From NCBI RefSeq assembly GCF_964204645.1, contig NC_134036.1, forward strand, positions 7,788,812-7,852,811: a DNA stretch of 64,000 bases. The letters run 5' to 3'. Below are positions 2,091 to 54,850 of the stretch, in pieces. The stretch comes from Tubulanus polymorphus. Taxonomy: Eukaryota > Animalia > Nemertea. The notes beneath the pieces were generated by a model that had not been told where the DNA came from, made no database searches, and saw only the letters and a program-made list of their open reading frames with translations. Each line of letters starts with the position of its first letter. Position 1 is the stretch's first letter. The translations under genes were made by a program, and so were the position numbers.

Positions 2091-2849
2091 TTTCAACATA
2101 CGGAATTTCAACATTTTCTTTTATCTGTTTTACTATCGGCAGAGGTGTGCATGTGCACAGTCTGACTGAAGATATTTCTACCAAATAACGACATAAATAC
2201 CTGGAAAAATCAAAGAAACCACACGTTATGAAACTTTCAAGGTCGTGAATATGTATATTAATGGTTTTCATGTATCGCTTATTCAAATTACACTACCGAC
2301 CTCTAGTGGGATCAATACATCACTAATTCTCACACCGCAGACATCAAATTGATTAATCCTATTCTATAAACTTCTGATCGTTTCTCTCATTCAGCCCCAA
2401 CGATCCGTGATGGGGGTACGTTGATCGGGTATTATACTCAAGTTCTGCTTTTGGTCATTAACGGTTGACAAAACCATCATATGCCAATTACCAAATACTT
2501 GTTACGGATAAAAAACCTCTCGTTTGACTTGTCAGGTTTAGCGTTTTTCACCACTCTTCCTTCTGAACTAACCAGACTCTGCTCATACGCAAACTATTCT
2601 AGCTAATTATCTATCTATATGTTTCAACAACAGCACTTACTAACTTCAAACTGTCAAACCAAGTTTTTTAATCTGTGACATGTAGTATTCCATGTTTATA
2701 ATTTAATCATTGATGGATCTATCATAGTTAATTATATTGAGTATAGCAATCAATGACTAATTCCTGGATAGAGATCTGGGAGCAAAATGAGTGACGTGAA
2801 ACGGCCGCAGACAGTGAAACTTAGTGATGGTCGCATTTTGTTGCTTGAA

Positions 2850-4030
2850 TATTTTCCGAATTTCCAACATTTTGTATTATCTGTTTAAATCTCGGGTTCG
2901 GTCGTGTTTTGTTTTTCTCAAGTATTTTAGAATGGTCGAGTCGTGTGTTACTGGGGGATGTTGGACAACGAGGTTTGAGGATGACTTCAGTTTTTTTATG
3001 TGAATATCTCCCGAATTTTTAACATTTTCTTTTATCTGTTTTAATATCGGCTTCGGTCGTGTTTCGTTTTCTCGAGTATTTTCAGAATGGTCGAGTCGTT
3101 TGTTACTGGGGATGTTTGACAAGGAGGATTGAGGATCACTCAAGTTTTAAATCTAAATATTTTCAGAATTTTCAACATTTTCTTTTATTATCTATTTTAA
3201 TGTCGGCTTCAGTCGTGTTTCGTTTTCTTGAGTATTTCCAGAATGACCAATTGGTTTGTTACTGGACGATCTTTGACAAGGAGGATTGACGATGACGTCA
3301 GTTTTTGATGTAAATATCTTCCGAATTTTCAAAATTTTCTTTTATCTGTTTAAATATTGGCTTCGGTCATGTTTTGATTTATCAAGTATATATAGAATGG
3401 TCGATTCGTTTGTTACTGGGGATGATTTACAAGAAGGACTGAGGATGATTTTAGTTTTTAGTGTAAATATTTTCCAAATTATCAACTTTTTGTTTCATGT
3501 GTTTCAATAACGGCGTCGGTCGTGTTTCGTTTTCTCGAGTATTTTCAGAATGGTCGTGTGGTTTGTTACAGGAGGATGTTTGACAAGGAGGATTGAGAAT
3601 AGCTTCAGTTTTTATTGTAAATATTTTCCGAATTTTCAACATTTTCTTTTATCTGTTTCAATATCGGCTTCGGGCGTGTTTCGTTTTCTCGTTTTTGTAA
3701 GGTGTGCATGAGCACAGTCGTTTTTTGTAATGGGGTATGTTTTGGAATGAGAATTGAATATGGCTTCAGTTTGTTATGTGAATATTTTTCGAATTTTCAA
3801 CATTTTCTTTTATCTGTTTCAATCTCGGCTTCGGTTGTGTTTTGTATTTCTCGAGTATTTTCAGAATGGTTAAGTCGTTTGTTACTGGGGGATGTTTGAC
3901 AAGGAGGATTGAGGATGACTTCAGTTTTTATGTAAATATTTTCCTACTTTTCAACATTTTATTTTATTCATACTCAGTCCTCCCTGTCAAATATCCCCAA
4001 TTAATAAAACGAATCGACAATACTAAAAAT
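2850..4030 (-). repeat. ~154-bp satellite array (~7-8 monomers), inverted relative to 19020-21133
   Basis: Recurrent gtttcgttttctcgagtattttcagaatggtc and gtttgacaaggaggattgagg at ~154-bp spacing. Confidence 0.9.
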
Positions 4031-5400
4031 ACTGGTGATAACCAAGACACGACTGAAGTCGAGAATATAAAATACAGATTACAGTAAATTGCCGTAGCCT
4101 CCTAATAAAACTGGGAACACTATTTAGCAAAACAAATGATTTGAAATCATCAAATTTTTGATAACATTTGGCCATCAATTATTTATTCCTGCCTCTTGTT
4201 TCGGTCTTGTAGCCGCGTTCTCAACCCGCTGAAGTTGGTATATTAAACCCGCATATACCATAAAAGAATGAAGCAGACAGTTTAGTAATAGAGTTCGAAT
4301 ATTTTAGTACACGTACTTCATTGTGTCAATTTTGGGTCACGATATGATCGAACTTCCACACAATAGTCGCCGCCCAAATGGTATTGTGGTAACGCTTGGT
4401 TAGAGCTTCATTCGAGAACCAGCCACCACGTCTAGCGCACGTACACCAGTGAAGGGCCTGTATTGAGATATGATTACCCACCAAAGCCAAGTCAGAAAAT
4501 CCCAACATATCTGGTAAGTTTGTTGTAGGTGTATAGTATCATTCTTCAAAAACTGAATTAGTTTTGTATTCAAATCTTCTATCTCAAGCCTAGTTTAATT
4601 TGTCAAGTTCAATTCATTTTATTCTGATAGTTGACCTTTTCGTTCGGAAATCTTACAATCTTTAGTTTTTCTTTGTAGATACCCAAAACGCCCTAGTGAT
4701 AGATATCTCGACAAGTCAGAAACATATTTTCGATTACTTTTAGAATATAACGGTGAGTATTCAACATATTCATTGCTGTTAGTTTCGCCTAAGTGTTAAG
4801 CAATCTTATCTGTTTTAGATTGATAGCACACTGGAAACAAAATCGATTGAATAGTCAACATTAAAACATGGGATCTTTATTTAATATGAATGGTTGAGTA
4901 TGTGTTCATTTCATATAAGAATGAATTAGAATCTTTCGACGATGAATAAAAGTGAAAGAATGAATTGAGTTTTCTAGCAGCAACCGTCAACATAGGAGAG
5001 GCAGCATCCGTCAACATGGGAGCAGCAGCATCCGTCAACATAGGTGCAGCGGCAGCCATCAACACCCAACATAGGAGAGGCAGCATCCGTCAACATAGGA
5101 GCAGCAGCATCCGTCAATATAGGAGCAACAACAGCAGCAGCACAATTTGGTATCAACATAGGATCCAAGCGGCATCAAACAATTAAAAACAAGTAACTTT
5201 AAAGATAATTGTTCACCCCTAAGCTGAAAATACAGAACCGAAAACTGTCAAGGTTTTTCAGAGCTTCATTTTCCCGAGAACTGGAGAAAATATCGGCAAA
5301 CTTTTCGGTACCGGGATTAAGTTCCACGGCGACGTGATACCACCAGGAGCTCCCGACATCCCAAACAGTATTTCATATTTTGATACGTTTGCTTTCAGTT
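4030..5400 (-). repeat. Inverted copy of the block at ~17340-19020 (also 43360-44830)
   Basis: acagtaaattgccgtagcctcctaataaaactgggaac (4081) is the reverse complement of ~18930-18968; the same minisatellite and ORF remnants recur. Confidence 0.85.
4978..5140. repeat. 24-bp minisatellite (gcagcatccgtcaacataggagca)
   Basis: Direct tandem units; source of the spurious AAAPMLTD ORFs. Confidence 0.9.
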
Positions 5401-17574: not shown

Positions 17575-17842
17575 TGCTGCTCCTATATTGATGGATGCTG
17601 CTGCTCCTATGTTGACGGATGCTGCTGCTCCTATGTTGACGGATGCTGCCTCTCCTATGTTGATGGATGCTGCTGCTCCTATGTTGACGGATGCTGCTGC
17701 TCCTATGTTGACGGATGCTGCCTCTCCTATGTTGATGGATGCTGCTGCTCCTATGTTGACGGATGCTGCTGCTCCTATGTTGACGGATGCTGCCTCTCCT
17801 ATGTTGATGGATGCTGCTGCTCCTATGTTGACGGTTGCTGCT
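17575..17842. repeat. 24-bp minisatellite, ~11 units with a 72-bp higher-order period
   Basis: (gatgctgctgctcctatgttgacg)n; variant units recur every third unit. Confidence 0.95.
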
Positions 17843-19019: not shown

Positions 19020-21133
19020 TTTTTAGTATTGTCGATTCGTTTTATTAATTGGGGATATTTGACAGGGTGGACTGAGTATGAATAAAATAAAATGTTGAAA
19101 AGTAGGAAAATATTTACATAAAAACTGAAGTCATCCTCAATCCTCCTTGTCAAACATCCCCCAGTAACAAACGATTTAACCATTCTGAAAATTCTCGAAG
19201 AATACAAAACACGACTGAAGCCGAAATTGAAACAGATAAAAGAAAATGTTGAAAATTCGGAAAATATTCACATAACAAACTGAAGCCATATTCAATCCTT
19301 TTTCAAAAACATACCCCATTACAACAAACGCCTGTGCACATGCACACCTCAGTCGAATGCCACACACGCCACTTTTCACTCCAATATTTTCCACGCAATC
19401 CTCCCTGTCAAACATCCTCGAGTAACAAATGACTCGACCATACTGAATGTATACTTGATATAACAAAATAAGACCAAAGCCGATATTAAAACAGACGAAA
19501 TAAAATGTTGAAAATTCTGAAAATATTTACATAACTGAAGTCATCCTCACACCTCCTTGTCAAACATCCCTCGGTAAAAAACGACTCGACCATTCTGAAA
19601 ATGCTCGATAAAACGAAACACGACCGGAGCCGATATCAAAACAGATAAAAGAAAATAATGATAATTCGGAAAATATTTATATCAACAACTGATGTCATCC
19701 TCAATCCTCCTTGTCAAACATCTCCCAGTAACAAAACACTCGACCATTCTGCAAATACTCTAGAAAACGAAACACGACCGAAGCCGATGATAAAACAGAT
19801 GAAAAAATGTTGAAAATTCGGAAAATATGTTCATTAAAAACTGAAGTCATCCTCACTCCTCCTGGTCAAACATTCCCGAGTAACAAACTACTTATTCATT
19901 CTGAAAATACTCGAGAAAACGAAACATGACCGAAGCCGACTTTAAAACGGCTACGGGAAATTAGTGATAATTTGGAAAATATTTACATTAACAACTGAAG
20001 TCATCATCACTCCTCCTGGTCAAACATCCCCCAGTAACAAACCACTCGACCATTCTGAAAATACTCGAGAAAACGAAAGACGATCGAAGCCGATATTAAA
20101 ACAACTAAAAGACAATTTCGAAAATTTGGAAAATATTTACATTAAAAACTGAAGTCATCCTCACTCCTCCTTGTCAAACATTTCCCAGTAACAATTCAAT
20201 TGGTCATTCTGAAAATACTCTAGAAAACGAAACACAACTGAAGCCGATATCAAAACAGATAAAAGAAAACGTTGAAAATTCGGAAAATATTTACATTAAA
20301 ATCTGAAGTTATTCTCAATCCTCCTTGTCAATCATCCCCAGTAACAAAAGACTCAACCATTCTGAAAATACTCGAGAAAACGAAACACGACCGGAGCCGA
20401 TATCAAAACAGATAAAAGATAATGTTTATAATTCGGATAATATTTACATTAACAACTGATGTCATCCTCAATCCTCCTTGTCAAACATCCCCCGGTAACA
20501 AACGACACGTCCATACTGAAAATACTCGAGAAAACGAAACAGGACCGAAGCCGATATTAAAACAGATAAAATAAAATGTTGAAAATTCGGAAAATACTTA
20601 CATTGACAACTGAATTCATCCTCACTCCTCCTTGTCAAACATCATCCTGTGACAAACCATTTGACCATTCTGAAAATACTCGAGAAAACGAAACACGACC
20701 GAAGCCGTTATTAAAACACATGAAACAAAAGGTTGAAAATATTGAAAATATTTACACTAAAAACTGAAATCATCCGCAGTCCTCCTTGTAAATCATCCCC
20801 AGTAACAAACGAATCGACCATTCTATATAAACTTGATTAATCAAAACATGACCGAAGCCGATATTAAAACAGATAAAAGAAAATTTTGAAAATTCGGAAG
20901 ATATTTACATCAAAAACTGACGTCATCCTCAATCCTCCTTGTCAAAGATCGCCCAGTAACAAACCAATTGGTCATTCTGAAAATACTCAAGAAAACGAAA
21001 CACGACTGAAGCCGATATAAAAATAGATAAAAGAAAATGTTGAAAATTCGGAAAATATTTACATTAACAACTGATGTCATCCTTATCCTCCTTTTCTTAC
21101 ATCCCCGGGTAACAAACGACTCGACCATTCTAA
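19020..21133 (+). repeat. ~154-bp satellite array (~13-14 monomers)
   Basis: gaaaacgaaac anchors at 20223, 20376, 20530, 20684 (spacing 153-154). Confidence 0.95.
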
Positions 21134-24100
21134 AAGTAAAACAATTATCGGGAAAATTGGGCGCAATTAATCAAGAAATAGAAGAATATAATGCTATGAA
21201 TGGTGTAAATGTAAGAAAATATGATTTTAAACTATTAGCTAAAACATCTGAAAATTATATTTCATTTCAATTTGGTTGCATTAGATTTTTAGATTCTTAT
21301 AGATTTCTAGCAAGTTCATTAGATAATTTATCAAAAAGTTTAGTTGATAATGATTTTGTTATAACTCGATATTATTATCCAAATGAACAAGATTTTAAAT
21401 TATTGAGATATAAAGGTGCAATTCCTTATTCATTTTATAAAACACACAATGATTTTAATGTAACAGAATTATTAAAAGATCAATTTTATAATCAATTAAA
21501 AGAGGAGTATGTGAAAGACGAAGTGTTTAATAGAACATTAAATATTTGGAACCATTTTAAGATGAAAAATCATGGTGAATTAGTTGATTTATATTTAAAA
21601 TCAGACGTTATGATATTGGCTGACATATTTGAAAAATTTAGAGAAGTTAATTTGAATCATTTTAATGTTGATCCTTGTTATTGCTACTCTAGCCCTGGTT
21701 TAACCTGGCAATGTGGTTTAAAATATACAAATGTAGAATTAGATTTATTAAAAGAACCAGATATGGTTTTATTATTTGAAAAATCAGTTAGAGGTGGAAT
21801 TAGTGGTGTTATGGGAGATAGGTATTTTAAAGCAAATGATGAATATAAATTATTATATATTGACGCCAATAATTTATATGGTTGGGCAATGATGCAACCT
21901 CAACCACATGAAAATTTTATATTAACAGAAGTTGAAAATGGTGATAAAACTGATTGGGAAAGCGCAATTGCGAGTTTAAAAGATGAAGCACCAATTGGTT
22001 ATTTCTTTGTAGTTGATTTAGAATATCCTGAAAATATAAAGTTTAAAACAAGAAACTTACCTTATTGCCCAGAACATTTAACTGTAGATGATAGTTATTT
22101 AAGTGAATACCAGAAGAAAATAAAACCGAAAGATCATGTTTTTACAGAAAAATTAAAAATTACTCAAAATAATAAATACAATTATATTGTTCATTATAGA
22201 ATGTTAAAATTTTATCTAAAAAAAGGAATGAAATTAAAGAAAGTACATAGATATATTGAATTTAATCAATCGAAGTGGTTAGAAAAATATATAGATTTCA
22301 ATACTCAACAGAGAACAATATCAAATTAATCTTCAAATTAATGAATAATAGTTTTTATGGTAAAACATGTGAAAATATTAGAAATAGAAATGATATTGAA
22401 TTAGTAAGTAATTCTGAAAGATTAAGACATTTACAATCAAGTCCTAGACATTTAGGAAATAAAAGATTTGAAGATTATTTAACAGCAGTTAAATTGAAAA
22501 GAACATCAATGAAATTTAATAAACCTATATTTATTGGTTCGACTGTTTTAGAAGTATCAAAATTATTAATGTATGATTTTTATTATAATGTTTTACAACC
22601 ACTTTTTGGGGAAAAGCATATTGGAATATTATATTTTGATTCTGTAACAGCTGACACCCCAATATTATTAAAATGTAATGATAAAATATTGATAAGAAGA
22701 ATTTCAGAAATAATTCCAAAACAAAATGAATGTTATATTTCATATGGAGAAAAAGAATTAATACAAATAAATGGATTAATGGATGTTTGGACAAGAAATG
22801 GATGGAAAAAATTAAAGAATATTATTAGACATAAAACAAATAATAAAATCTATAGAGTTAGAACTAAATTAGGGTTCGTAGATGTTACAGAAGATCATAG
22901 TTTAATTAAACGAAATGGCGATGAAATAAAACCAACTGATATAAAAATTGGAGATGAATTATTACATAAAAGATTTTTCCAAAGAATGAATCATATGTCA
23001 TTTGATGAAATAATTGATAATATTTATAATATAGAACCCGAAACATTAGAAGAAAAAGAATATTTTATCAAAGGATTTTTCATGGGTGATGGTTCAGCAG
23101 GTGTGTATAATTATGTTAATCGCACTCAATATTGCTGGTATTTATGCAATCAAGACTTAAAATTATTAGAAAGAATTAAGAAATTCTGTGAAGAAGTTCA
23201 TTCACATAAAACATTCAAAATCATAGATGTTATGAAATCATCGCAACGTTATAGAATACATGTGAATAATCATAAAGATTTTGCTATAAAATATAATAAC
23301 GAATTCTATATTCATGCAATAGTGAAAAGTAATACTTCAACTAAAGAAAAGATAGTTCCAGATTATGTATTAAATGCAAAAAATTATTTAAGAAAATGGT
23401 TCTTCATTGGATTCTACGCAGCCGATGGTACTTAAAGTTTCAAAAACCGCAAAACAATATCTTTAGCTCAAAAAGGAAAAGTTGCTATATCAGGATTAAA
23501 TATATTATGCAATTCATTAGGTTTTAATATGAATATTGGATTGATTAAATCTAAACCAAATTGCTTTAATTTAAGCCATGTAGAAAATGAGTTAACTGAA
23601 GAAGTTAAAGATTTATTTGAAATATATAACCCAACAGATTATGTTTATGATTTATCAACTGAAGATGGTACATTTAACTGTGGATTTCCATTAATAGCCA
23701 AAAATACTGACGCCTACATACTAAAAATCAAGACAAATGACATAACAAAAGACTTAAAAACATTAAAACATCATTTTGATTTTAGCAATTATCCCAAAGA
23801 TCATGAACTATTTAGCAATGATAATAAAAAGATTCCTGGTAAATTTAAAGATGAATTAGGGGGTGATGAAATGATTTAATTTGTTGGGATAAGAAGTAAA
23901 ATGTATAGTTACAGAACAAAAGATCATGAAGCTAAAAAGTTAAAAGGAGTAACAAAACATGTGGTTGATAAACATATAGAATTTCAAGATTATATAAAGT
24001 GTTTATATAAATCAATTGTAATGAAACACAAAATGAATTGTTTAAGATCAGAAGATCATGAGATGTACATTAATGAAGTTGAAAAAACTAGTTTAAATCC

Positions 24101-24161
24101 ATTTGATGATAAAAGGCATATTTTAGATGATGGTATAAAAACATTAACTTATGGTCATTAA
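21134..24161 (+). pseudogene. polB: Protein-primed family B DNA polymerase containing an intein; 5' truncated, frameshift ~22320, stops at 23433 and 23877
   Basis: FLDSYRFL, YLKSDV (ExoIII), YIDANNLYGWAM (motif A), KLMNNSFYGK (B), YFD..TD (C, split by intein), GKFKDE, KLKGV, DDKR. Confidence 0.95.
22641..23705 (+). mobile_element. Intein with LAGLIDADG homing endonuclease (355 codons, one in-frame TAA at 23433-23435)
   Basis: Block A SVTADTPILLK right after YFD; block B VTEDHSL; block C FIKGFFMGDGS; block E FFIGFYAADGT; block H-like KGKVAISGLNILCNSLGF; block F YVYDLSTEDGTF; block G LIAKN then +1 Thr. Absent from the second polB (YFDTDS). Confidence 0.95.
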
Positions 24162-24520
24162 AACATAAAATCAATATCATCATACTCGAAATCACTATTG
24201 GCTTCTTCATTTTCATTTAATTGTTCATGTTCTTCTTCCATTCCATTTTTCTCATTTAAATAAAGTTCTATCTTGTTCCACATTTCATCTCGCTCTCTTT
24301 GTTTCTTTTTGTTTGTTAATTCATCAAATGGAATTATAATATCTATGTTTAAATAATTTTCAATCTTATTTAAAAAGAATTCATAATTTATTGAATCTGT
24401 TATTCTATTTTCTAAATGATACATTAATATTTGTTTGAATATTTTTTTTATATTTTCCGTATCTTCTTCTGATAATTTAGGTTTTTCATAATAATCGTTA
24501 AATAATAAATATAAATACAT
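24158..24520 (-). CDS. Hypothetical protein with acidic C-terminus
   Basis: 120-aa ORF convergent with polB. Confidence 0.55.
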   Translation of the reverse strand: MYLYLLFNDYYEKPKLSEEDTENIKKIFKQILMYHLENRITDSINYEFFLNKIENYLNIDIIIPFDELTNKKKQRERDEMWNKIELYLNEKNGMEEEHEQLNENEEANSDFEYDDIDFMF

Positions 24521-25064: not shown

Positions 25065-25469
25065 TTAAGTTTCAAATTTATTAGAAATTTTATCTATATG
25101 TGCTTTACGAAATTGATGATTCTCCCAATCTTCTATATTTTCAGGGCTATATTTTATTCGACAAGGCTCACAGAAATGATCTTTTATATTATCCTTATCA
25201 TAGAATAAGAAAGGTCTTTTCCAAATAACTTCAGGTTCAACTTCGGCAGAATTACTATTACTTTCATTACTATCAACATTAGCCGTTGCGCCATTAATTC
25301 TACACTTCTCTGAATGTTTTTTAACATAATTTCTTGAGAATAATTTATTACATTTTGGGCAGTTTATTTTAGGGGGTTTATAATTTTCATCATGTTTTTT
25401 CATATGTCGAGCCATATTACTTTTTCTTAGAAGTTCACCACAAATTTCGCATGCTATCTTCTCATCCAT
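25065..25469 (-). CDS. C2H2-type zinc-finger protein
   Basis: CEICG..MARHMKKH; CPKC..KKHSEKC; CEPC..H....H. Confidence 0.75.
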   Translation of the reverse strand: MDEKIACEICGELLRKSNMARHMKKHDENYKPPKINCPKCNKLFSRNYVKKHSEKCRINGATANVDSNESNSNSAEVEPEVIWKRPFLFYDKDNIKDHFCEPCRIKYSPENIEDWENHQFRKAHIDKISNKFET

Positions 25470-30811: not shown

Positions 30812-32059
30812 ATGAGTGGGAGTTATATAAGTCCTTCTAAGATTTCTAGAATATCTAATGCTATTAAAGCAGAAAGATCACATCATATAATTACTCATAA
30901 CCCTTCAAATATTAATCCCGATGAAACTTTATATTTTAGGATTCCTAGATTAACACAAAATACTTTTTATGTTCCAAATAGTATTTATTTATCAGCCGAT
31001 ATAAAAGTAACTGGCCATGATAACAATTACGTTGTTGATAATGTTGGAAGATATTTGATTAAAAAATTAACTATAAAGATTGGTCCGGAAACAGTTTTCT
31101 CATTAGATGATTATAATTTATCTATGCATTATAAAGATTTATGGTTAACTAAAGAAAATAGAAATAATATGATATTTCAGGGTATTCAATCGGAAAACCA
31201 TAATGAATTAAGATCAGGAACTAATGACGCAATAGTAACTCGTGCCACAGATAATTTGATAAAAAAGATTTATGGAAGCAAATATAAAATTCCATTAGAC
31301 TTTGAATTGATAAATAATAATGCACCTTTATATAAATACGCAATTCAAGAAGATATTATATTTGAGATAACATTTGCTCCTGTAAATGAAATTGTATTAT
31401 CTAGCGTTGTTAAAGATATGGGTTATAAATTATCGAATATATGTTTAGAATATAACACAGTAACTGATGAAAATATTGCTAGCACAATTCAAACTCAATA
31501 CAATCAAGGATTTTCATTATTATATGATTATATTGATAAATTTAAAACCGTAACTATTAATGCAAATGATGAAATAATTAATGAGAATATTAACTTCCCA
31601 AGAAGATCTATTAAAGGTATATTAATATATTTCACCATTGCAACATATTCTAATGGTGCAATAAAGGTAGATAATTATTATAATCCTGAAATAACAAAAG
31701 TAGAAATAACTATCGAAGGAATAGCAAATAAAATATTTTGCCAAGGAATGAGAATGATAGATCAGTGGCCAGAAATTAGAAAACATTTTATGAATGAAAA
31801 AGTAAAATCATTTGAAAATTGTAATATTAATCAAATTGATTATTATACCGGCAATAAATATGCATTATGGTTAGATTTTAGAACAACATAGGATAATTCA
31901 TTACATGGTTCAGGAAAAAAATTACAAAACACTAAAGATGGAATACAATTATTCATGGCGAAGAAAAGAGGGGACAAAAATTTCAAAATGCACATTTATA
32001 TTATATCTGACGCGCAATTAAATATTGTAAATTCACAATTAGATAGTATTCAATATTAG
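30812..32059 (+). pseudogene. Major capsid protein (inferred double jelly-roll), 415 codons with one TAG at 31889
   Basis: ITHNPSNINPDETLYFRIPRL, KIPLDFE, LSNICLEY, NFPRRSIKGILI, ALWLDFRTT*DNSLHGSG; the frame continues to TAG 32057-32059. Confidence 0.8.
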
Positions 32060-32089: not shown

Positions 32090-33216
32090 ATGGGTGATAA
32101 AAAAACTCATAATACTAAAGAACAATATTTAAGAAATTTATATTACAACCCTGAGAGTTCAGTTGCTTATTCTTCTACTAAAAATATATGGCGTCAAGTA
32201 AAACAAGATAAATTAGATAAGATAATCCCACAGAATTTAGTTAAATATAAAGATATAAATGAATTTATGTTAGAACAACCAACATATACAACACATAAAA
32301 AAATTGTTAGAAAATATAAAACTCGTAAAACTATGGTAAGTTATGTAGATCAACAGTGGCAAGGAGATTTATTGATATGAAAAATGTTAAGAAAGATAAT
32401 GATGATTATTGGTGGTTATTGAATATAATTGATATTTTTAGTCGTTATGTATGGAGCTTCCCACTTTATAGAAAAGATGCTGTACAAACATCAAATGTTT
32501 TAAGAAAATTTCTTTCGGATGATAAACTAAAACCAGAAAAAATACAATTTGATGATGGAAAAGAGTTTGATAATTCACCTGTTCATGAACTCTTAGATAA
32601 TCATAATATTAAATATTTTTCAACAAAATCAGATAAAAAAGCAGCAGTTGTTGAACGATTTAAAATAGAACATTAAGAACAAGAATGTGGAAATATTTTA
32701 CAGCAAATAATACTTTTAAATGGATTGATTTTTTACCAAAATTGATAGAAGGATATAATAATTCTTATCATTCTTCTATTGGAATGAAACCTATTGATGC
32801 TAGAAAACCTGAAAATACTGCAATTGTTTGGAATAATTTATATGGAGCATTTCTTGTAGGTGATTTTGGTGAACCTAAATTTAAAGTTGGTCAAAATGTT
32901 AGAATTTCTAAGTATAAAAAGATATTTGATAAAGGATACGATCGAAATTTTACTAGAGAAATATATAAAATAAAAAAGGTAATAACAACAAAACCATATG
33001 TCTATAAATTAGAAGATTTAGATGGTGAAGAAGTTGATGGCTACTTTTACGAAGAAGAATTAAGTTTAACTACTGAAAATCTAGAACAAGAATATAAAAT
33101 TGAAAAAGTATTAAAAACAAAAATATAAAAGAAAAAAATATTCTTTAGTAAAATGGGTTGGATGGCCAGATAAATTCAATGAATGGATATTATCAAGTAA
33201 AATTAAAAATATATAA
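32090..33216 (+). pseudogene. int: Retroviral-like (rve) integrase with C-terminal chromodomain; frameshifted
   Basis: QWQGDL (D), QFDDGKEF (D), AAVVERF (E), YNNSYHSSIGMKP; chromo-like YKIEKVL...LVKWVGWPDKFNEWI. Confidence 0.92.
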
Positions 33217-33825
33217 ATGAATAAAGAATTATTTATATTTGAGCCTCATAATATGTTAATATCTGGCGTAACAAATTGTGGAAAAACTTATTTTATATTA
33301 AATTTATTAGAAACTGTTTATGAAAACTATTTTGATAATATAGTATTATTTTGCCCAACGTATGAACTTAATCAAACTTATGATAGAAATAGTACTAGAA
33401 ATAATAAATTTATTATATTAGATCCTAAAACAGTAGAAGAAAATTTAGATAATTGTATAAAAATAGCAATTGATATTTATAAAGGATCAAATACATTATT
33501 CATTATAGATGATTGCGCTAATTTACATGATTCAAAAGTGAGAGAAAGTGAGTTATGTTATCTAGCTTTCTCTGGAAGACATTTCGGGATAACAACATGG
33601 GTTTTAAATCAAAAATATAATTCAATTGTTAAAGACTTTAGAGAAAACATTAGATTTCTAGTTTTATTCTACAATAAAGATAGAAAATCAATGAAAAATG
33701 CACTTGAGGAAAATGATATTATTCCACATGATTTACATAATGAATATATGGATAAGTTGAAAAATATTAAAAGATCAAAATTACTATTTAGATTACAACA
33801 CCCATTTAAATATGAATTTATTTAA
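33217..33825 (+). CDS. Genome-packaging ATPase (A32/FtsK-HerA family)
   Basis: Walker A GVTNCGKT, Walker B FIIDD, GRHFGIT...NQ, FREN. Confidence 0.9.
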   Translation: MNKELFIFEPHNMLISGVTNCGKTYFILNLLETVYENYFDNIVLFCPTYELNQTYDRNSTRNNKFIILDPKTVEENLDNCIKIAIDIYKGSNTLFIIDDCANLHDSKVRESELCYLAFSGRHFGITTWVLNQKYNSIVKDFRENIRFLVLFYNKDRKSMKNALEENDIIPHDLHNEYMDKLKNIKRSKLLFRLQHPFKYEFI

Positions 33826-36779: not shown

Positions 36780-37175
36780 ATAAAAGAAAATGTTGAAAAT
36801 TCGGAAAATATATTCATTAAAAACTGAAGTCATCCTCAACCCACCTTATCAATCATCCCCCATCAACAAACGACTTGACCATTCTGAAAATACTCGAGAA
36901 AATGAAACACGACCGAAGCCGATATTAAAACGGGCAAAAGAAATTGTTGATAATTCGGAAAATATTTACATTAACAACTGATGTCATCCTTATCCTCCTT
37001 TTCTTACATCCCCGGGTAACAAACGACTCGACCATTCTGAAAATACTCGAGAAAACCAAACACGACCGAAGCCGTTATTAAAACACATGAAACAGAAGGT
37101 TGAAAATTCGGAAAATTTTTACATTAAAAACTGAAGTCACCCTCACTCATCCTTGTCAACCATCCTCCAGCAACT
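36780..37175 (+). repeat. ~154-bp satellite, ~2.5 monomers
   Basis: Same monomer as 19020-21133. Confidence 0.9.
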
Positions 37176-40815: not shown

Positions 40816-43800
40816 ACGTAAGCGGGCATTCGAAAATGAACCAAGAACCGATGACAGAGTTTCTGCCAAATATTAAGAGAGTCAATAAGATGGTGAATCG
40901 CAATACGATATGATCGGTCGTGGCGGAATATCCTTTCTATAATGTTTGAAAGTTCCCAAATAGGATGGTTTCCAAAACAGGTAAGCCTGCTTATCTGAAG
41001 GCAAACATATCGAACCTACCGAAATGATTTCGATATTTCATTCCCCTTTCTATCTTTATGATGCGGAAAGAGTTTACAACCGACATAAGAAGCCAATGAG
41101 TTTAATTTTAATTGTCGAATTGCGTTAAGACTAATCAAAGCAATAGTATTTCGACCTATTGCCTAAATCTTTGAAATATGGTCCAGTTGTTATCAGACTC
41201 GGGGAAGTTGATATCAAACTCTTTTTGTAGCCAACTTTCCTTTTCAAAATTTAAAAATCCCCGGCTACGGGTTCGTCATGATAGTATTGAGACCGAGGGC
41301 ACATCCAGATACGGGCTATACCAGTCATCGCTTACATTGAAATTGTTGACGCCGGTACTAAACTATTTGAAATGAAAATTTATGGCGACGTGTGACTTTC
41401 AAAAACATTGTCACTGTAAAGTTCGGTATGCTTAGGTAACATTTCAAAATTGCTATAGCAAATACAGGTTCACTAATGAGCAAAATAGTATCAGATGGTT
41501 AGATTTTATTTTCATCCCACTTAAATCGAAATTTAATAGAGTAGGATATATAAAGAGTTCAAATAATGTAAGAACCTAATCAAATTGAAATCGGCGGAAA
41601 CTAACAGTAACATTTTTAGACATTCTAATAAACCCTGATAATCATCAATGTATCCACTATTTACAGATTTTGAACTGCAGCCAAAGATGTCCATTCCAAA
41701 TTGGATGGTTTCCAAAACAGGTAAGCCAGCTTATCTGAAGGCAAACATCGAACCTACCAAAATGATTTCGATATTTCATTCCCATTTATATCCTCATGAT
41801 GCGGAAAGAGCTTACAACCAACATAAGATGCCAATGAGTTTAATCTTAATGGTCGAATCGCGTTTAGACTAATCAAAGCAATAGTATTTCGACCTATTGC
41901 CTAAATCTTTGAAATATGGCCCAGTTGTTATCAGGCTCTGGGAAGTTGATATCAAACTCTTTTTTTGCCAACTTTCCTTTTCAAAATTTCAAAATCCCCG
42001 GCTACGGGTCTGTTATAAAAGTATTGAGACCAAGAGCATATCCAGATACGTGCTATACCAGTCATCGCGTGATATTGAAATGGTTGACAATGGTACTAAA
42101 CTATTTGAAATTAAAATTCATTGCATCGTGTGACTTTCAATAACATTGCCACCGTAAGTCTTGGATGCGTAAGTAACATCTCTTTAATTTTAGTTAGACT
42201 GAAACAATGAGTGAATCTTCTACATTTACAATCTTACACATATCAGACTGCATTCAAAATACTTTACAGCTCCTAGTGATAAACTTAGTGATATCAGTTT
42301 TCGGTTCATTCAAGCTCAACACGTTCTAACCTGCCCCAATTCACATCGGCCCTACAATGCCTACCGACATTTACACTGCCTATTGCAATACACCTATCAA
42401 ACATTGTACTAAGCATACCCTTCCAAGAACTAAACCCATCCCAAACCCAACCACAACCCGACAACCCTACCCCACCCAGAGACCTTACCCTATCACATCC
42501 TGTCCTACCCTATCCTATTACCATACCCCACCTCATCCTCCTACCCGAACCCTACCACCGTCACTTATGTAATGCCCTTACACCAGCCTTTCTATCTCAT
42601 CGCAGACCTACCGAACTACACTACCCTATCCTACCACATACACCACTCACCCCGTGATCAGTTCTACCAAACTCACCATCCAACCCAACCACACCAACGC
42701 ATCCTGCACCATCCAACTCGACCTAACCTTATCACATTGTCCTATTCTACCCTACGTGTGAGCTCCTCTGTACCCTTCCCTATTCCAAACCACTCCTAAT
42801 CCACACTACAATCAGAGAGGTAGAAATGCCACGATGTCGCGGTTTAAATGGATGGGAATGATTCTTATCGCTAATGAAGATGAGAGAATAAAAATTCTTC
42901 CAAATGAGGAGGAATAAATGAAATGACTGTGTACACAATCAGTGTTACATGTACATCAGTCACAACTTAGTTAGACTGAAACAATGAGTGAATCTTCTAC
43001 ATTTACGATCTTACACATATCAGACTGCATTCAAAATACTTTACAGCTCCTAGTGATAAACTCTACTTATCTTTTTTACTAAGCGATTCATTTTTCCTCC
43101 GTTGCTCCTCTGTCGCTCATATTGCTCTTGCAGCTCAAGTTTGTGAATCTATGTACAAGTTTGTGAATCTATGTACCGGCACTGCGCATCAATGAGCTCT
43201 GTAGAATTAACCTTTGCTGGAAGAAATCAAGGTTTTAAAAGACCAAACAAACTAGCCTTTTTTTCGAAGTCGAACGAAGCGCTTTTTTATTTTTTACTGA
43301 AAATGTTTACAAAAAGCGCTGTAATGACTATCGAAATAGAAATTAAGAATTACATGAACCACTGTTTGGGATGTCTGGAGCTCCTGGTGGTATCACGTCG
43401 CCGTGGAAGTTAATCCCGGTACCGAAGAGTTTGCCGATATTTTCTCTAGTTACTAGCTCGGGAAAATGAAGCTCTGAAAAACCTTGACAGTTTCCGGTTC
43501 TGTATTTTCAGCTTAGGGGTGAATCATTATATTTAAACTTACTTGTCTTTAAACTTTTGATACCGTTTCATATTGTGCTGCTGCTGTTGCTGCTCCTATG
43601 TTGATGGATGCTGCTGCTCCTATGTTGACGGTTGCTGCTGCTCCTGTTTTGACGGATGCTGCCTCTCCTATGTTGATGGATGCTGCTGCTGCTGCTATAC
43701 CACTTGTAGATCCTGCTACACACGATGAATACCCCAGCGAAACGATATCAGAAAACTCAATTCATTCTTTCACTTTTATTCATCGTTGAAAGATTCTAAT

Positions 43801-46956: not shown

Positions 46957-49793
46957 ATGGAAGCAAACAAGAAGTACTACTGTCCAACATGTAAAATAAG
47001 TATAGATAAATCTCAAAAAGCAAGACATAATAAAACTAAATCTCACTTAGAAAATAGATTAAACTTAGAATATAGAGATGATATATTAGAAAATTAATTA
47101 GAGGAATTGAAGAATGTAAAAGAAACATACAAACGTGATACATGTAATCAATCATTCAGTGAAAAAAAATATTATGAACAACGTTTAAAATCTAAAAGTC
47201 ATATTACAAATATCAATAATGATATTTCAGGTAAAGAATATTTTGATAAAGATAATGATAAGAAGCAGAAGACAATTAAAAGAATAAAAAATAAATTAAA
47301 CAATAAAAGACCATACATATATATTAATTCATTAGATAATAAAAAAGAAATAGAAATAACCGAGGCATTCAAAAGTGATATTGGACCAGCATTGAGTTTG
47401 AATTTCATAAAAGATAGGAAAGAAATATATTATAAAAGAAAGAAATCAAATTCTGAAAATGATATAATTGATTATTCAGATCCTCAAATAACAAATACAA
47501 TTAAAAAGATTCATCAAAGTGCTGCAGCTTTTGGATTATATATAAAATCTGATTATCCATAACTAATTGAAAGTGAATATTATCATTATAGAAATGAAAA
47601 TGATACAAATAAAGAAATAATTATGACAGAAGAAGATAAAGAAAAATTTGTGTTTGCAGATAAATGTTATTATTGTGAAAAGATATTTGATTTTAAAGAT
47701 AAAAAAGTTAGGGATCATGATCATTTGAATGGAAAGTTTAGAGGCGCAGCGTATGAGAATTGTAACTTACAAGCTATGAAAATCAATTTTGTTCCAGTAA
47801 TATTTCATAATTTATCAGGATATGATGCACATTTATTTATAAGACAGTTGTGTCATAAAATAAAAGAAATCAATAATGAAATAGAAAGATTAAATTCAAA
47901 TAGATCAAAAGATAAAATAACAACTTATAAATTTAGAATGTTAGCTAAAACATCTGAGAATTATATATCTTTCCAATTTGGGTGTCTAAGATTTATAGAC
48001 TCATATAGATTTTTAAGTACTTCATTAGATAATTCATCAAAATCATTAGTTGATGATGAATTAAAAATATTAAAGCAACACTATCCAAACAATGATCATT
48101 TTTAATTAATGAGATATAAAGGCTCAATTCCATATTGATTTATAAATCGCATAAGGATTTTAATATAACTGAATTATTAAAAGAACAATTCTATGATGAA
48201 TTAAAAAATGAATATGTGAAAGATGAAGTCTATAATAGAACATTGAATATTTGGAATCATTTTGGAATGGAAAATCATGGACAATTAGTAGATTTTTATT
48301 TAAAATCAGATGTATTATTATTAACTGATATATTTGAAAGGTTTAGAGATGTAAATCAAAAATATTTTAATATTGACCCATGTCATTGTCATTCTAGTCA
48401 AGGTTTAACTTGGGATCGTGGTTTAAGATTTACGGATATAAAAATGGATTTGTTAACAAATTTAGACCAATTATTGTTATTCAAAAAATCTATAAGATGA
48501 GGTGTTTCAGGTGTATTAGGTGATATATATTTCAATGTAAATGATAACCCTGGATATAATCTATTGTATATATAGATGCAAATAATCTATATGGTTGGGC
48601 AATGATGGAACTTCAGCGTTATGGAGTATTTGAAATAACTGAAATTTTACGGTATGAAAATAATGATAAATTTGATTGGAAGAAAATAATTCTAGATATT
48701 TCGGATGATTCAATGACTGGTTACTTTTTTGTTGTAGATTTCGAATATCCTGAAAACATTAAATTTAAATCTATAAATCTAGCATACTGCCCCGAACATA
48801 AAACTGTAACGCATGAAGAATTATCAAATTATCAAAACAGAATTAAACCCGATAATCATATTCATACAGAAAAGTTAATGGTAACTCAGGAAGATAAATG
48901 TAATTATGTAGTGCATTATAGAATGTTAAAATTCTATTTGAATCAAGGAATGATCCTAAAAAAGTACATAGATATATTTCATTCAGTCAATCTAAATGGT
49001 TAGAGAAATATATAGATTTTAACACCAAACAGAGAACTAAAGCTAAAACTGATTTTGAGAATGATTTCTTCAAGTTAATGAATAATGCATTCTATGGAAA
49101 AACTTGTGAAAACATCAGAAATAGAAATGATATTGAGTTAGTCAGTAATGGCAAAAGAATTAGACATTTACAAACATATCCTAAGTTCATCGGTAACAGA
49201 ATATTTGATGAAAATTTAGCTGCAGTTGAAAGGAGAACTTCTATGAAATTTAATAAACCAATTCATGTTGGAGCAACAGTTTTAGAAATATCAAAGTTAT
49301 TAATGTATGAATTTTACTATAACGTATTACAACCTCATTTTGGAGAAAAGCATATAGAAATCTTATATTTTGACACTGACAGTTACATATTAAAGATAAA
49401 AACTAATAACATAACAGATGATTTAAAAACATTAAAACATCATTTTGATTTTAGTAATTATCCTAAAGATCATGAATTGTTTAACAATGATAATAAAAAG
49501 GTGCCCGGTAAATTCAAAGATGAATTAGGAGGTGAAGAAATATAAAACTAAAACTCATGAATCAAAGAAATTGAAAGGAATAACCAAAAGCGTTGTTGAA
49601 AGAAAATATTCATTTCGAAGATTACATCAATTGTATATTCAATGAAGAAGTTGGAAAACATAAGATGAAATGTTTAGGATCCGAAGATCATGAAATGTTT
49701 ATTGAAGAGATAGAGAAGATAAGTTTAAACCCATTCGATGATAAAAGATATATTTTAGATGATGGTATACACACAGTTATGGTTGTAATATAG
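46957..49793 (+). pseudogene. polB: Protein-primed PolB, intein-less allele, with N-terminal zinc fingers; multiple stops and frameshifts
   Basis: YYCPTC..H.....H; CYYC..VRDHDHLNGKFRGAA; FHNLSGYDAH; DANNLYGWAM; MNNAFYGK; YFDTDS at 49366-49383; DDKR. Confidence 0.93.
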
Positions 49794-49889: not shown

Positions 49890-50665
49890 ATGGAGAGTAA
49901 ACAGTCACAAACTAACAATATTCACCATAAAAAATGTTCAAAATGTGAATTGAATAAGCCATTTACAGAATATTACACAAAAAAAACTAAGAAAGATGGT
50001 TTAAGAAACAATCGTAAAAGATGTTGGAAACAGAAGAATAAACTGTATAATAAACAATGTTATATAGATAATATTGAAAAATATAAAGATAGAAGTAAAC
50101 AATATTATCTAAATAATCTAGAAAAATGTAAAGAAACGAAAAAACAATGGAGAGAAAATAATCCAGAATATATTAGAGATTGGAAAAAAGAAAATCGTGA
50201 ACATTATGATGATTACAGTTATAATTATCAAAAAGAAAGGCGTCAAACAGATCTTAATTTTAAAATGAAACAATGTTTGAGAAATAGATCATCAAAATTA
50301 TTCAGTAAAGAAACGCATTTAGAAACGCTAAAAAAATTCCTTGGATTGTTCAGATGAATTTCTCAAATCATGGATTATATATCAGTTCGATGATGAAATG
50401 AATAAAGATAATTATGGAAATTATTTTCATATTGATCACGTGTTACCAATATCTAAATTTAACACGAGTGATGAATACAATAAAAAAACTAATTTGGAAT
50501 TGGAATAATCTAAGACCCATTGAAAAGAAAGAAAATAAAATTAAGTCTTACAAACTTGATATGAAATTATATTTTGATCAATTAGATAAAGCAAAGAAAT
50601 TCATCGAATTATGGAATAGTGATCCAAATAATGAACAATATGTTGAATCTTTATTGAGTGGTTAA
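49890..50665 (+). pseudogene. Zn-finger / helical repeat / HNH-type endonuclease, frameshifted
   Basis: CSKC...DGLRN; shifted frame FHIDHVLPISKF then WNWNNLRPIEKKEN. Confidence 0.65.
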
Positions 50666-54761: not shown

Positions 54762-54850
54762 GGCCTTGGTAGCTCAGTGAGATAAGGTGTGATGCTGTTG
54801 AATCCACTATCAATGCTGAGTGACAAGTGGGTTCGAGTCCTGCTGGCTGC
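54762..54850 (+). mobile_element. tRNA-derived SINE head or tRNA pseudogene
   Basis: A box TAGCTCAGTG and B box GGTTCGAGTCC; no clean cloverleaf. Confidence 0.55.

Follow-up and report, generated by a model that had tools for sequence, protein, structure and literature searches.

The 64,000-nucleotide stretch of contig NC_134036.1 analysed here, referred to throughout as the window, is a graveyard of Polintons with satellites and retroelement debris alongside. One of its Polintons carries the remnant of a protein-primed family B DNA polymerase (pPolB) gene (21137..24161, forward strand), and within this remnant lies a LAGLIDADG intein of 355 codons with one internal stop (22641..23705, same strand), recognised from sequence motifs, profiles, predicted fold and an empty allele. 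The 1065-nt insert is in frame with motif C of the family B polymerase (PolB) and splits it at the YxD/TD position, the pol-c site, with the junctions ...ILYFD/SVTADTP...GFPLIAKN/TDAY. It has the splice-type residues Ser1, block B VTEDH, block F YVYDL, a penultimate Lys, a terminal Asn and Thr at +1, together with the LAGLIDADG-type motifs YFIKGFFMGDG and WFFIGFYAADG. We classify the insert as a LAGLIDADG intein of class 1 type, lodged at pol-c in a Polinton pPolB.

A second, degraded pPolB remnant in the window (47563..49778, forward strand, about 73% identical in DNA to the first by sequence comparison) defines the boundaries of the intein with single-base precision. It keeps an empty site, YFD/TDSY: its matches stop at 49374 and restart at 49375. 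An intact host motif is likewise seen in the empty alleles P0142 and P0131, marking the insertion as precise and in frame. A first-pass annotation of the window had proposed just such a 1065-nt insert splitting YFD/TD, with splicing blocks and two LAGLIDADG helices, and motifs, profiles and predicted fold bear this out. Its description of the intein as full-length holds for the span and fails for the coding state: intein codon 265, directly after the second LAGLIDADG motif, is a stop (23433..23435, forward strand), and the host gene is itself broken. Its 5' part is missing, the truncated end abutting a 154-bp tandem array found by repeat analysis (19396..21135), a frameshift lies near 22320-22340 and a further stop at 23877-23879. 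Because of these lesions neither polymerase nor intein can be produced from the window copy, which is dead; both have decayed and no precursor can be made.

The element hosting the intein is a Polinton, as the same annotation had recognised. Its pPolB matches Pfam PF03175 with 43.5 bits (79% to the relative P0377), a retroviral-type integrase in three open reading frame (ORF) pieces (32090..33128, forward) matches rve (PF00665) with 36.4 bits, and an A32-like packaging ATPase (33217..33825, forward) matches Pox_A32 (PF04665) with 46.1 bits, all three above their cut-offs. Between the polymerase and the integrase lie a VLTF3-like ORF of the Polinton (24158..24520, reverse; PF04947, 27.8 bits), a C2H2 zinc-finger ORF (25065..25469, reverse; PF00096, E 5e-5, below cut-off) and a probable double jelly-roll major capsid protein (30812..31891, forward). 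The capsid candidate has a weak match to Pfam Capsid_N (E 0.076) and Atlas features 0.96-0.98 alike to viral clusters, some of them with capsid families; its Atlas recognition score is below threshold and it has no sequence match in the PDB. No cysteine protease was found among the 18 ORFs scanned, and no pair of terminal repeats was seen in this Polinton copy, which is without its left part. Four more stretches of decayed Polinton, which sequence comparison shows to be 68-91% identical to the copy with the intein, lie at 7.8-12.0, 37.2-40.8 and 47.1-53.4 kb on the forward strand and at 55.9-64.0 kb on the reverse strand. The gene order after pPolB differs between the two copies: the empty-site copy has an ORF of 155 aa with a Cys pair near its N-terminus (49890-50357, no Pfam match), and the intein-bearing copy has the VLTF3-like and zinc-finger genes instead.

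Splicing and endonuclease domains

The N-terminal splicing region of the intein (residues 1 to about 112; 22641..22976, forward), with Ser1 and block B Thr83/His86, forms a beta-strand Hint region in the structural model and matches TIGR01445, the profile for intein N-termini, over residues 2-88 (30.1 bits, cut-off 24.5). In the C-terminal region (23601..23705, forward), motif tables and the alignment identify block F Asp337, block G GFPLIAKN and Asn355, the usual block F His being missing. D85 is invariant across the 100 alignment rows, as are H86, D337 and N355. Between the two regions lies a LAGLIDADG homing endonuclease domain with two motifs (about residues 121-313; 23001..23579, forward), which matches Pfam LAGLIDADG_3 (PF14528) with 31.6 bits (cut-off 22.5). 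In the model its LAGLIDADG helices span residues 136-150 and 248-262, and both end in an acidic residue (GFFMGDG, GFYAADG). By pattern search, the first motif has its Asp in all 11 pPolB inteins and the second in 10 of the 11.

With the 100-row alignment, AlphaFold2 gave a model with a pLDDT of 94.5 and a pTM of 0.93, in which the N- and C-terminal parts together are predicted to build a Hint fold; folding from the single sequence alone was uninformative (pLDDT 35). The domain shows I-DmoI and PI-type fold matches, and by Foldseek the nearest structures in the PDB are homing endonucleases of inteins (7qsu, E 9e-17; 2cw7, E 3e-16). The closest folds in BFVD are PolB inteins of nucleocytoplasmic large DNA viruses (NCLDV). 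A Hint domain of Hedgehog or bacterial intein-like type was considered and rejected, as the endonuclease, the +1 Thr and empty alleles are all present.

Class 1 inteins have Ser or Cys at position 1, a C-terminal Asn and Ser, Thr or Cys at +1 (PMC4031507). The window intein has Ser1, Asn355 and Thr+1, together with T83-E-D-H86 in block B and D337 in block F. For the uninterrupted pPolB inteins, splicing by the class 1 route is predicted, because these residues fit and because the lack of the usual histidines is common to 94 of 196 scored inteins; it would also be required, since the insert splits a catalytic motif in uninterrupted polymerases of 1500-1700 aa. In the proposed course, Ser1 would undergo an N-O shift aided by Thr83 and His86, transfer to Thr+1 would be aided by Asp337, and Asn355 would cyclise without the two usual histidines, with Lys at G:6.

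Some observations weigh against this prediction. The assisting His is missing both at G:6 and at F:13, the latter numbering being a pattern-based estimate; the window intein has Lys and Gly there. The Pfam Intein_splicing profile scores the window intein at 26.1 bits (E 8e-6) and so does not reach its cut-off of 35.8; three of the five occupied pPolB relatives scanned also fall below it, and the intein of P0139 has no match at E 0.001. The profile passes for the relative P0003 (37.7 bits). For the window intein, the profile check proposed in the first-pass annotation came out positive for LAGLIDADG_3 and TIGR01445 and below cut-off for Intein_splicing. The missing histidines, and the fact that the window copy is a pseudogene, would suit an intein-derived domain that no longer splices and that inactivates the polymerase or is merely tolerated by it. 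We regard this as barely credible. About 5% of functional inteins are without His G:6, which is not obligatory (PMC4031507), and the state with Lys and no His is present in 88 distinct inteins of RNA-primed PolB, normally an essential viral gene. Moreover, in uninterrupted ORFs the catalytic aspartate positions of motif C, two in number, lie on either side of the insert, and the clade has conserved its splice residues. The penultimate Lys, already remarked on in the earlier annotation, characterises the family (110 of 187 inteins extracted from RNA-primed PolBs) and is not an oddity of the window copy.

Lys with no block F His occurs in 94 of 196 scored distinct inteins, mostly from giant-virus-type PolBs. 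The penultimate Lys never coincides with a block F His (94 of 94 Lys cases are without it), as in a coupled active-site variant. This variant offers a large natural set in which to study Asn cyclisation without either histidine.

Relatives and origin of the intein

The protein matches to the window intein comprise 253 long ones, of which 120 were listed, and 42 short ones scored separately. Among the 120 listed, nine are pPolBs with an intein at the same site (39-62% identity), all within the top 14 rows: five uninterrupted ones of 1504-1693 aa (P0002, P0003, P0006, P0013, P0015) and four partial ones (P0004, P0005, P0007, P0012); P0058, also partial, is an additional case. The remaining listed matches are RNA-primed PolBs and type II topoisomerases, 30-41% identical over the full length. 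Flanks of pPolB type, judged by eye, occur in 19 of the 42 short matches. An HMMER search of 1.84 billion representatives yielded 2035 matches, the best 150 of which are mostly RNA-primed PolBs.

The block-G pattern FNxGFPL..N/TD was found at 15 loci in IMG/VR, all 15 in RNA-primed PolBs and 13 on contigs of giant virus metagenome-assembled genomes (GVMAG), and at 42 metagenomic loci, one of which (L049) is a pPolB; GTDB genomes held no such locus. A search of viral contigs for loci related to P0002 gave no match, and the 39 loci with distant pPolBs (17 from metagenome-assembled genomes, MAGs, and 22 from IMG/VR) had no intein match. An Atlas search with the P0003 intein returned LAGLIDADG/intein clusters all below 0.9 and without host taxa.

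For phylogeny, 223 inteins were extracted by pattern and dereplicated. A 76-row tree kept 35 of 121 PolB inteins outside the 'GFPL' group, which is carried by GVMAG PolBs, and 6 of 12 topoisomerase inteins; from a 50-row tree two long branches and more outgroups were dropped. The 11 pPolB inteins form one clade with support of 100/100. This clade groups with the GFPL inteins with 96 in the Shimodaira-Hasegawa-like approximate likelihood ratio test (SH-aLRT) in the 76-row tree and with 77/94 in the 50-row tree. As the pPolB inteins are nested in a wider radiation of PolB inteins, passage from giant virus to Polinton is the simplest direction, and the pPolB inteins likely entered once, from a giant-virus PolB, as judged from these sequences. 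Two points temper this: the sister relation to the GFPL inteins is moderately supported (77 ultrafast bootstrap, UFBoot), and the pPolB clade branches beside the GFPL group and not within it, so that the donor is unsampled. In such an entry, a GFPL-group intein from a Nucleocytoviricota PolB would have recognised the YxD/TD codons common to RNA-primed and protein-primed PolBs, both DNAs being present in one cell at the time of transfer.

The first-pass annotation had named either an NCLDV or an archaeal PolB as donor. The trees and the block-G loci speak for the giant-virus type, and the tree check it had suggested places the pPolB inteins as one clade beside giant-virus PolB inteins. An archaeal donor was rejected: the best relatives are NCLDV-type PolB inteins at 30-41% identity, and archaeal PI-PkoII matches the window intein at E 4e-8 only.

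The same intein family also occurs in type II topoisomerases, at a look-alike D/TD site (TDQD/TDG), and at further PolB sites (P0008, P0071, P0080, P0085 and others), and has therefore jumped between genes more than once. A related intein at YGD/TD is found in a protein of Chloropicon primus named DNA polymerase delta catalytic subunit (P0078, UPQ97335.1), on a 1.86-Mb contig; it would be unusual if this were a true nuclear Pol delta. Five GFPL inteins (L007, L012, L026, L028, L052) are shortened to 251-277 aa, the endonuclease probably being partly lost. Polinton-type pPolBs are present on 17 GTDB genome contigs (L058-L074), which probably come from eukaryotes or viruses and ended up in prokaryotic MAGs through binning.

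Empty sites, copy number and probable homing

Presence of the intein is scattered among Polintons. Of the 120 nearest pPolBs listed, 2 are occupied, 70 empty and 48 unscored. In a tree built from 13 occupied and 32 empty extein rows (29 of the 70 empty matches were kept after dereplication, and 48 of 118 were unscored), occupancy changes 7 times, every change being forced by well-supported branches. The four nearest exteins of the window copy are all empty, and the exteins of occupied P0139 and empty P0142 differ at 2 of 742 columns. In the P0003 cluster, whose 136 members lie on contigs of up to 1 Mb, the 15 members listed comprise 7 occupied, 4 empty and 4 that are partial and unscored. Between the 7 occupied and 4 empty alleles of this family, all 10 fixed differences in 1193 columns lie at -6 to +44 residues of the site, a clustering expected from co-conversion.

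The intein is also present in a polymerase of another kind. That of P0006 fails to align with group-1 pPolB (best 21%, E 0.003), and we take it, from its features, to belong to the second (Beta/pPolB2) group. Its intein is nevertheless 47% identical across the two groups and nests among group-1 inteins (99/95).

Scattered occupancy, clustered flank differences and presence in an unalignable pPolB group are the marks of homing, and the intein likely spreads among Polintons by homing into empty sites. The endonuclease would cut a second Polinton genome at its empty site, and mending of the break would copy the intein with some tens of flanking codons. Homing may have reached even the second pPolB group, and its partners could be either free viral genomes or integrated copies.

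Several points count against this conclusion. The comparisons were made at protein level only, and the flank differences could stem from ordinary recombination. The empty allele P0130 of the P0003 family also differs around the site (YTD/CD). As to direction between the groups, the approximately unbiased (AU) test fails to reject a tree in which the group-1 inteins are monophyletic and P0006 lies outside them (p 0.286). Finally, the intein (GC 0.254, GC3 0.149) has the composition of its extein (0.249 and 0.137), so that its arrival in this Polinton lineage was old and not recent. Such complete amelioration, the single clade of pPolB inteins and the partial tracking of extein lineages by intein sub-clades would also suit a history in which an ancestral Polinton gained the intein once, long ago, and its descendants inherited it vertically and lost it precisely many times, with no ongoing homing. 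This history we consider highly unlikely, in view of the identity between inteins whose exteins cannot be aligned, of occupancy that differs between alleles with 2 extein differences and fixed differences that cluster at the site, and of the few occupied sites among the nearest pPolBs. The variant site of P0130 possibly escapes cutting.

Sequencing reads give a similar picture within the species. In run X5, two reads join 22640 to 23715 across an empty site. In 1934 Mb of an independent run, from another study under the same species label, read depth was 109-254 over the intein and 231-402 over the exteins. Reads were matched at 88% likeness and most of those matching were 90-99% alike, so that many diverged copies in the species carry the intein. 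We estimate at least 10-25 copies, given a genome of at least 200 Mb, a size based on X1, whose contigs total 219 Mb. The intein-bearing family was found in three samples from two studies under one species label; five other runs with the same label had next to no matching words, which proves nothing. An assembly chimera at the joint of intein and extein was ruled out by contigs of X1, X2 and X4 over the 5' junction and one X1 contig over the 3' junction. The first-pass annotation overlooked that the event is no isolated case: the intein is polymorphic across many Polinton lineages and bears signs of homing.

Host, significance and known systems

The host of the scaffold is very probably an animal. 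The flanks of the Polintons are rich in frameshifted reverse-transcriptase fragments (about 1.5-1.75, 6.3-7.3, 11.9-14.9 and 40.9-41.0 kb) with the Penelope-like motifs DVASLFTNV, LFLEHVE and RRYVDD, which from these motifs we take to be of the Penelope/Poseidon-like clade. Reports of canonical endonuclease-positive (EN+) Penelope-like elements are confined to animals and conifers (PMC8557442). There are also satellites of 154 bp (2848-3967, 19396-21135, 36782-37174) and 24 bp (4977-5126, 17575-17842, 43588-43690), in both orientations, and tRNA-like A and B boxes, perhaps a head of a short interspersed nuclear element (SINE), at about 54765-54850, where ARAGORN calls no tRNA. The capsid and accessory genes of the window Polinton were unmatched in the 39 IMG/VR and MAG loci with related pPolBs, consistent with the report that adintovirus virion genes are animal-restricted (PMC8502044). 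The relative P0012, on a 2.5-kb contig, is filed under a clam gill-symbiont MAG, and the family recurs in samples of one species label.

On the other side, no host gene, tRNA or Rfam match was recognised in the 64-kb window, and searches with Rfam and ARAGORN and for telomere repeats and GIY-YIG motifs gave nothing informative on the host. The reverse-transcriptase fragments have neither the GIY-YIG motif nor a Pfam match in the flank scans, which covered 18 frames over 1-2.8, 4.1-7.9 and 12-17.5 kb and 10 short ORFs. Adintovirus-like PolBs exist in non-animal eukaryotes as well (PMC8502044), and nuclear scaffolds of algae and protists can carry polymerase inteins of viral type (PMC10710043). 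A scaffold from a non-animal eukaryote, such as a protist, fungus or alga, or from an associate co-assembled with an animal, under which the remaining conclusions would hold, is an unlikely but real alternative to an animal host. The 154-bp and 24-bp arrays recur together next to the retroelement debris, and both may belong to a single composite repeat.

Overall, there is good reason to believe that the window holds a dead LAGLIDADG intein in motif C of a Polinton pPolB, belonging to one clade that likely entered a single time from a giant-virus PolB, with predicted class 1 splicing, likely homing and a probably animal host. The recurrence of the family in three samples from two studies suggests residence in a germ line. 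A bolder reading, towards which we are tentative and lean slightly against, is that a giant-virus intein is homing today among Polintons in animal germ-line chromosomes; it would then be the first mobile metazoan intein family, a transposon gene drive crossing both polymerase groups, and a fossil record of co-replication of Polintons and giant viruses.

Eukaryotic inteins have been described from fungi, algae and NCLDV (PMC12220804, PMC3671162, PMC5784728), and inteins have been stated to be absent from metazoan genomes and argued as drug targets on that ground (PMC8529194). The present family, with many copies in chromosomes that are probably those of an animal, qualifies this claim, the host gene being viral and not cellular. 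The origin proposed here implies DNA contact between Nucleocytoviricota and Polintons and bears on the question of whether Polintons behave as virophages do. That one intein clade spans unalignable polymerases contrasts with the view of Ogata et al. (PMC549080), who judged direct homing between distant PolBs implausible. With near-identical alleles that are occupied or empty, direct tests of homing range, of conversion tracts and of resistance alleles become possible.

As far as the literature searched shows, this is the first complete intein in a Polinton or a protein-primed PolB. The first-pass annotation knew of no earlier one, and none was found, although subscription papers, Repbase annotations, bioRxiv supplements and supplementary sequence files could hold an earlier mention. 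Krupovic et al. (2024) suggested intein invasions as the source of nuclease insertions in Polinton pPolBs (PMC11071308). The words 'intein' and 'LAGLIDADG' do not appear in the main text, as accessible, of Jeong et al. (2023; PMC10748475), nor does 'intein' in the accessible part of 10.64898/2026.10.13.758929.

The window Polinton shares with alpha-type adintoviruses and Polinton/Maverick elements (PMC8502044) the pPolB, the rve integrase, the A32 ATPase, a probable double jelly-roll capsid and the state of degraded multi-copy integrants, and differs in carrying an intein, in its missing left part and in that terminal repeats and protease were not found. The HNH and VSR insertions (PMC10748475, PMC11071308) are likewise nuclease domains inside Polinton pPolBs, but they lie at other positions and the accessible text reports no Hint domain or splice motifs for them, whereas the window insert has a complete splicing domain in motif C and exact empty alleles. 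Virus-borne inteins in nuclear genomes are also known from the endogenous viral-like polymerases of Klebsormidium, Tetrabaena and Hondaea (PMC10710043); those hosts are algae and protists, and the accessible part of that paper mentions neither Polintons, Mavericks, animals nor metazoans. PI-PkoII (2cw7), TliVMA (7qsu), PI-PfuI and yeast PI-SceI have the same Hint and LAGLIDADG architecture (Foldseek E 9e-17 to 2e-10), but at 11-18% identity to the window intein none is a proximate donor.

The closest parallel is with the pol-c (site III, YGD/TDS) inteins of Nucleocytoviricota PolBs, such as that of Mimivirus (PMC549080), and with the GVMAG inteins of the GFPL group (L001-L015). The site is one that the earlier annotation had rightly connected with giant viruses, and the length of 330-365 aa, the Ser1, Asn and Thr+1 residues and the two-motif LAGLIDADG endonuclease are alike; with L001-L015 the block-G motif and the penultimate Lys are shared as well, at 31-43% identity. 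The Nucleocytoviricota inteins reside in RNA-primed PolB (PF00136) with YGD as the target, whereas those of Polintons reside in protein-primed PolB (PF03175), at YFD, YMD, YSD, ASD or YLD, and in many chromosomal copies.

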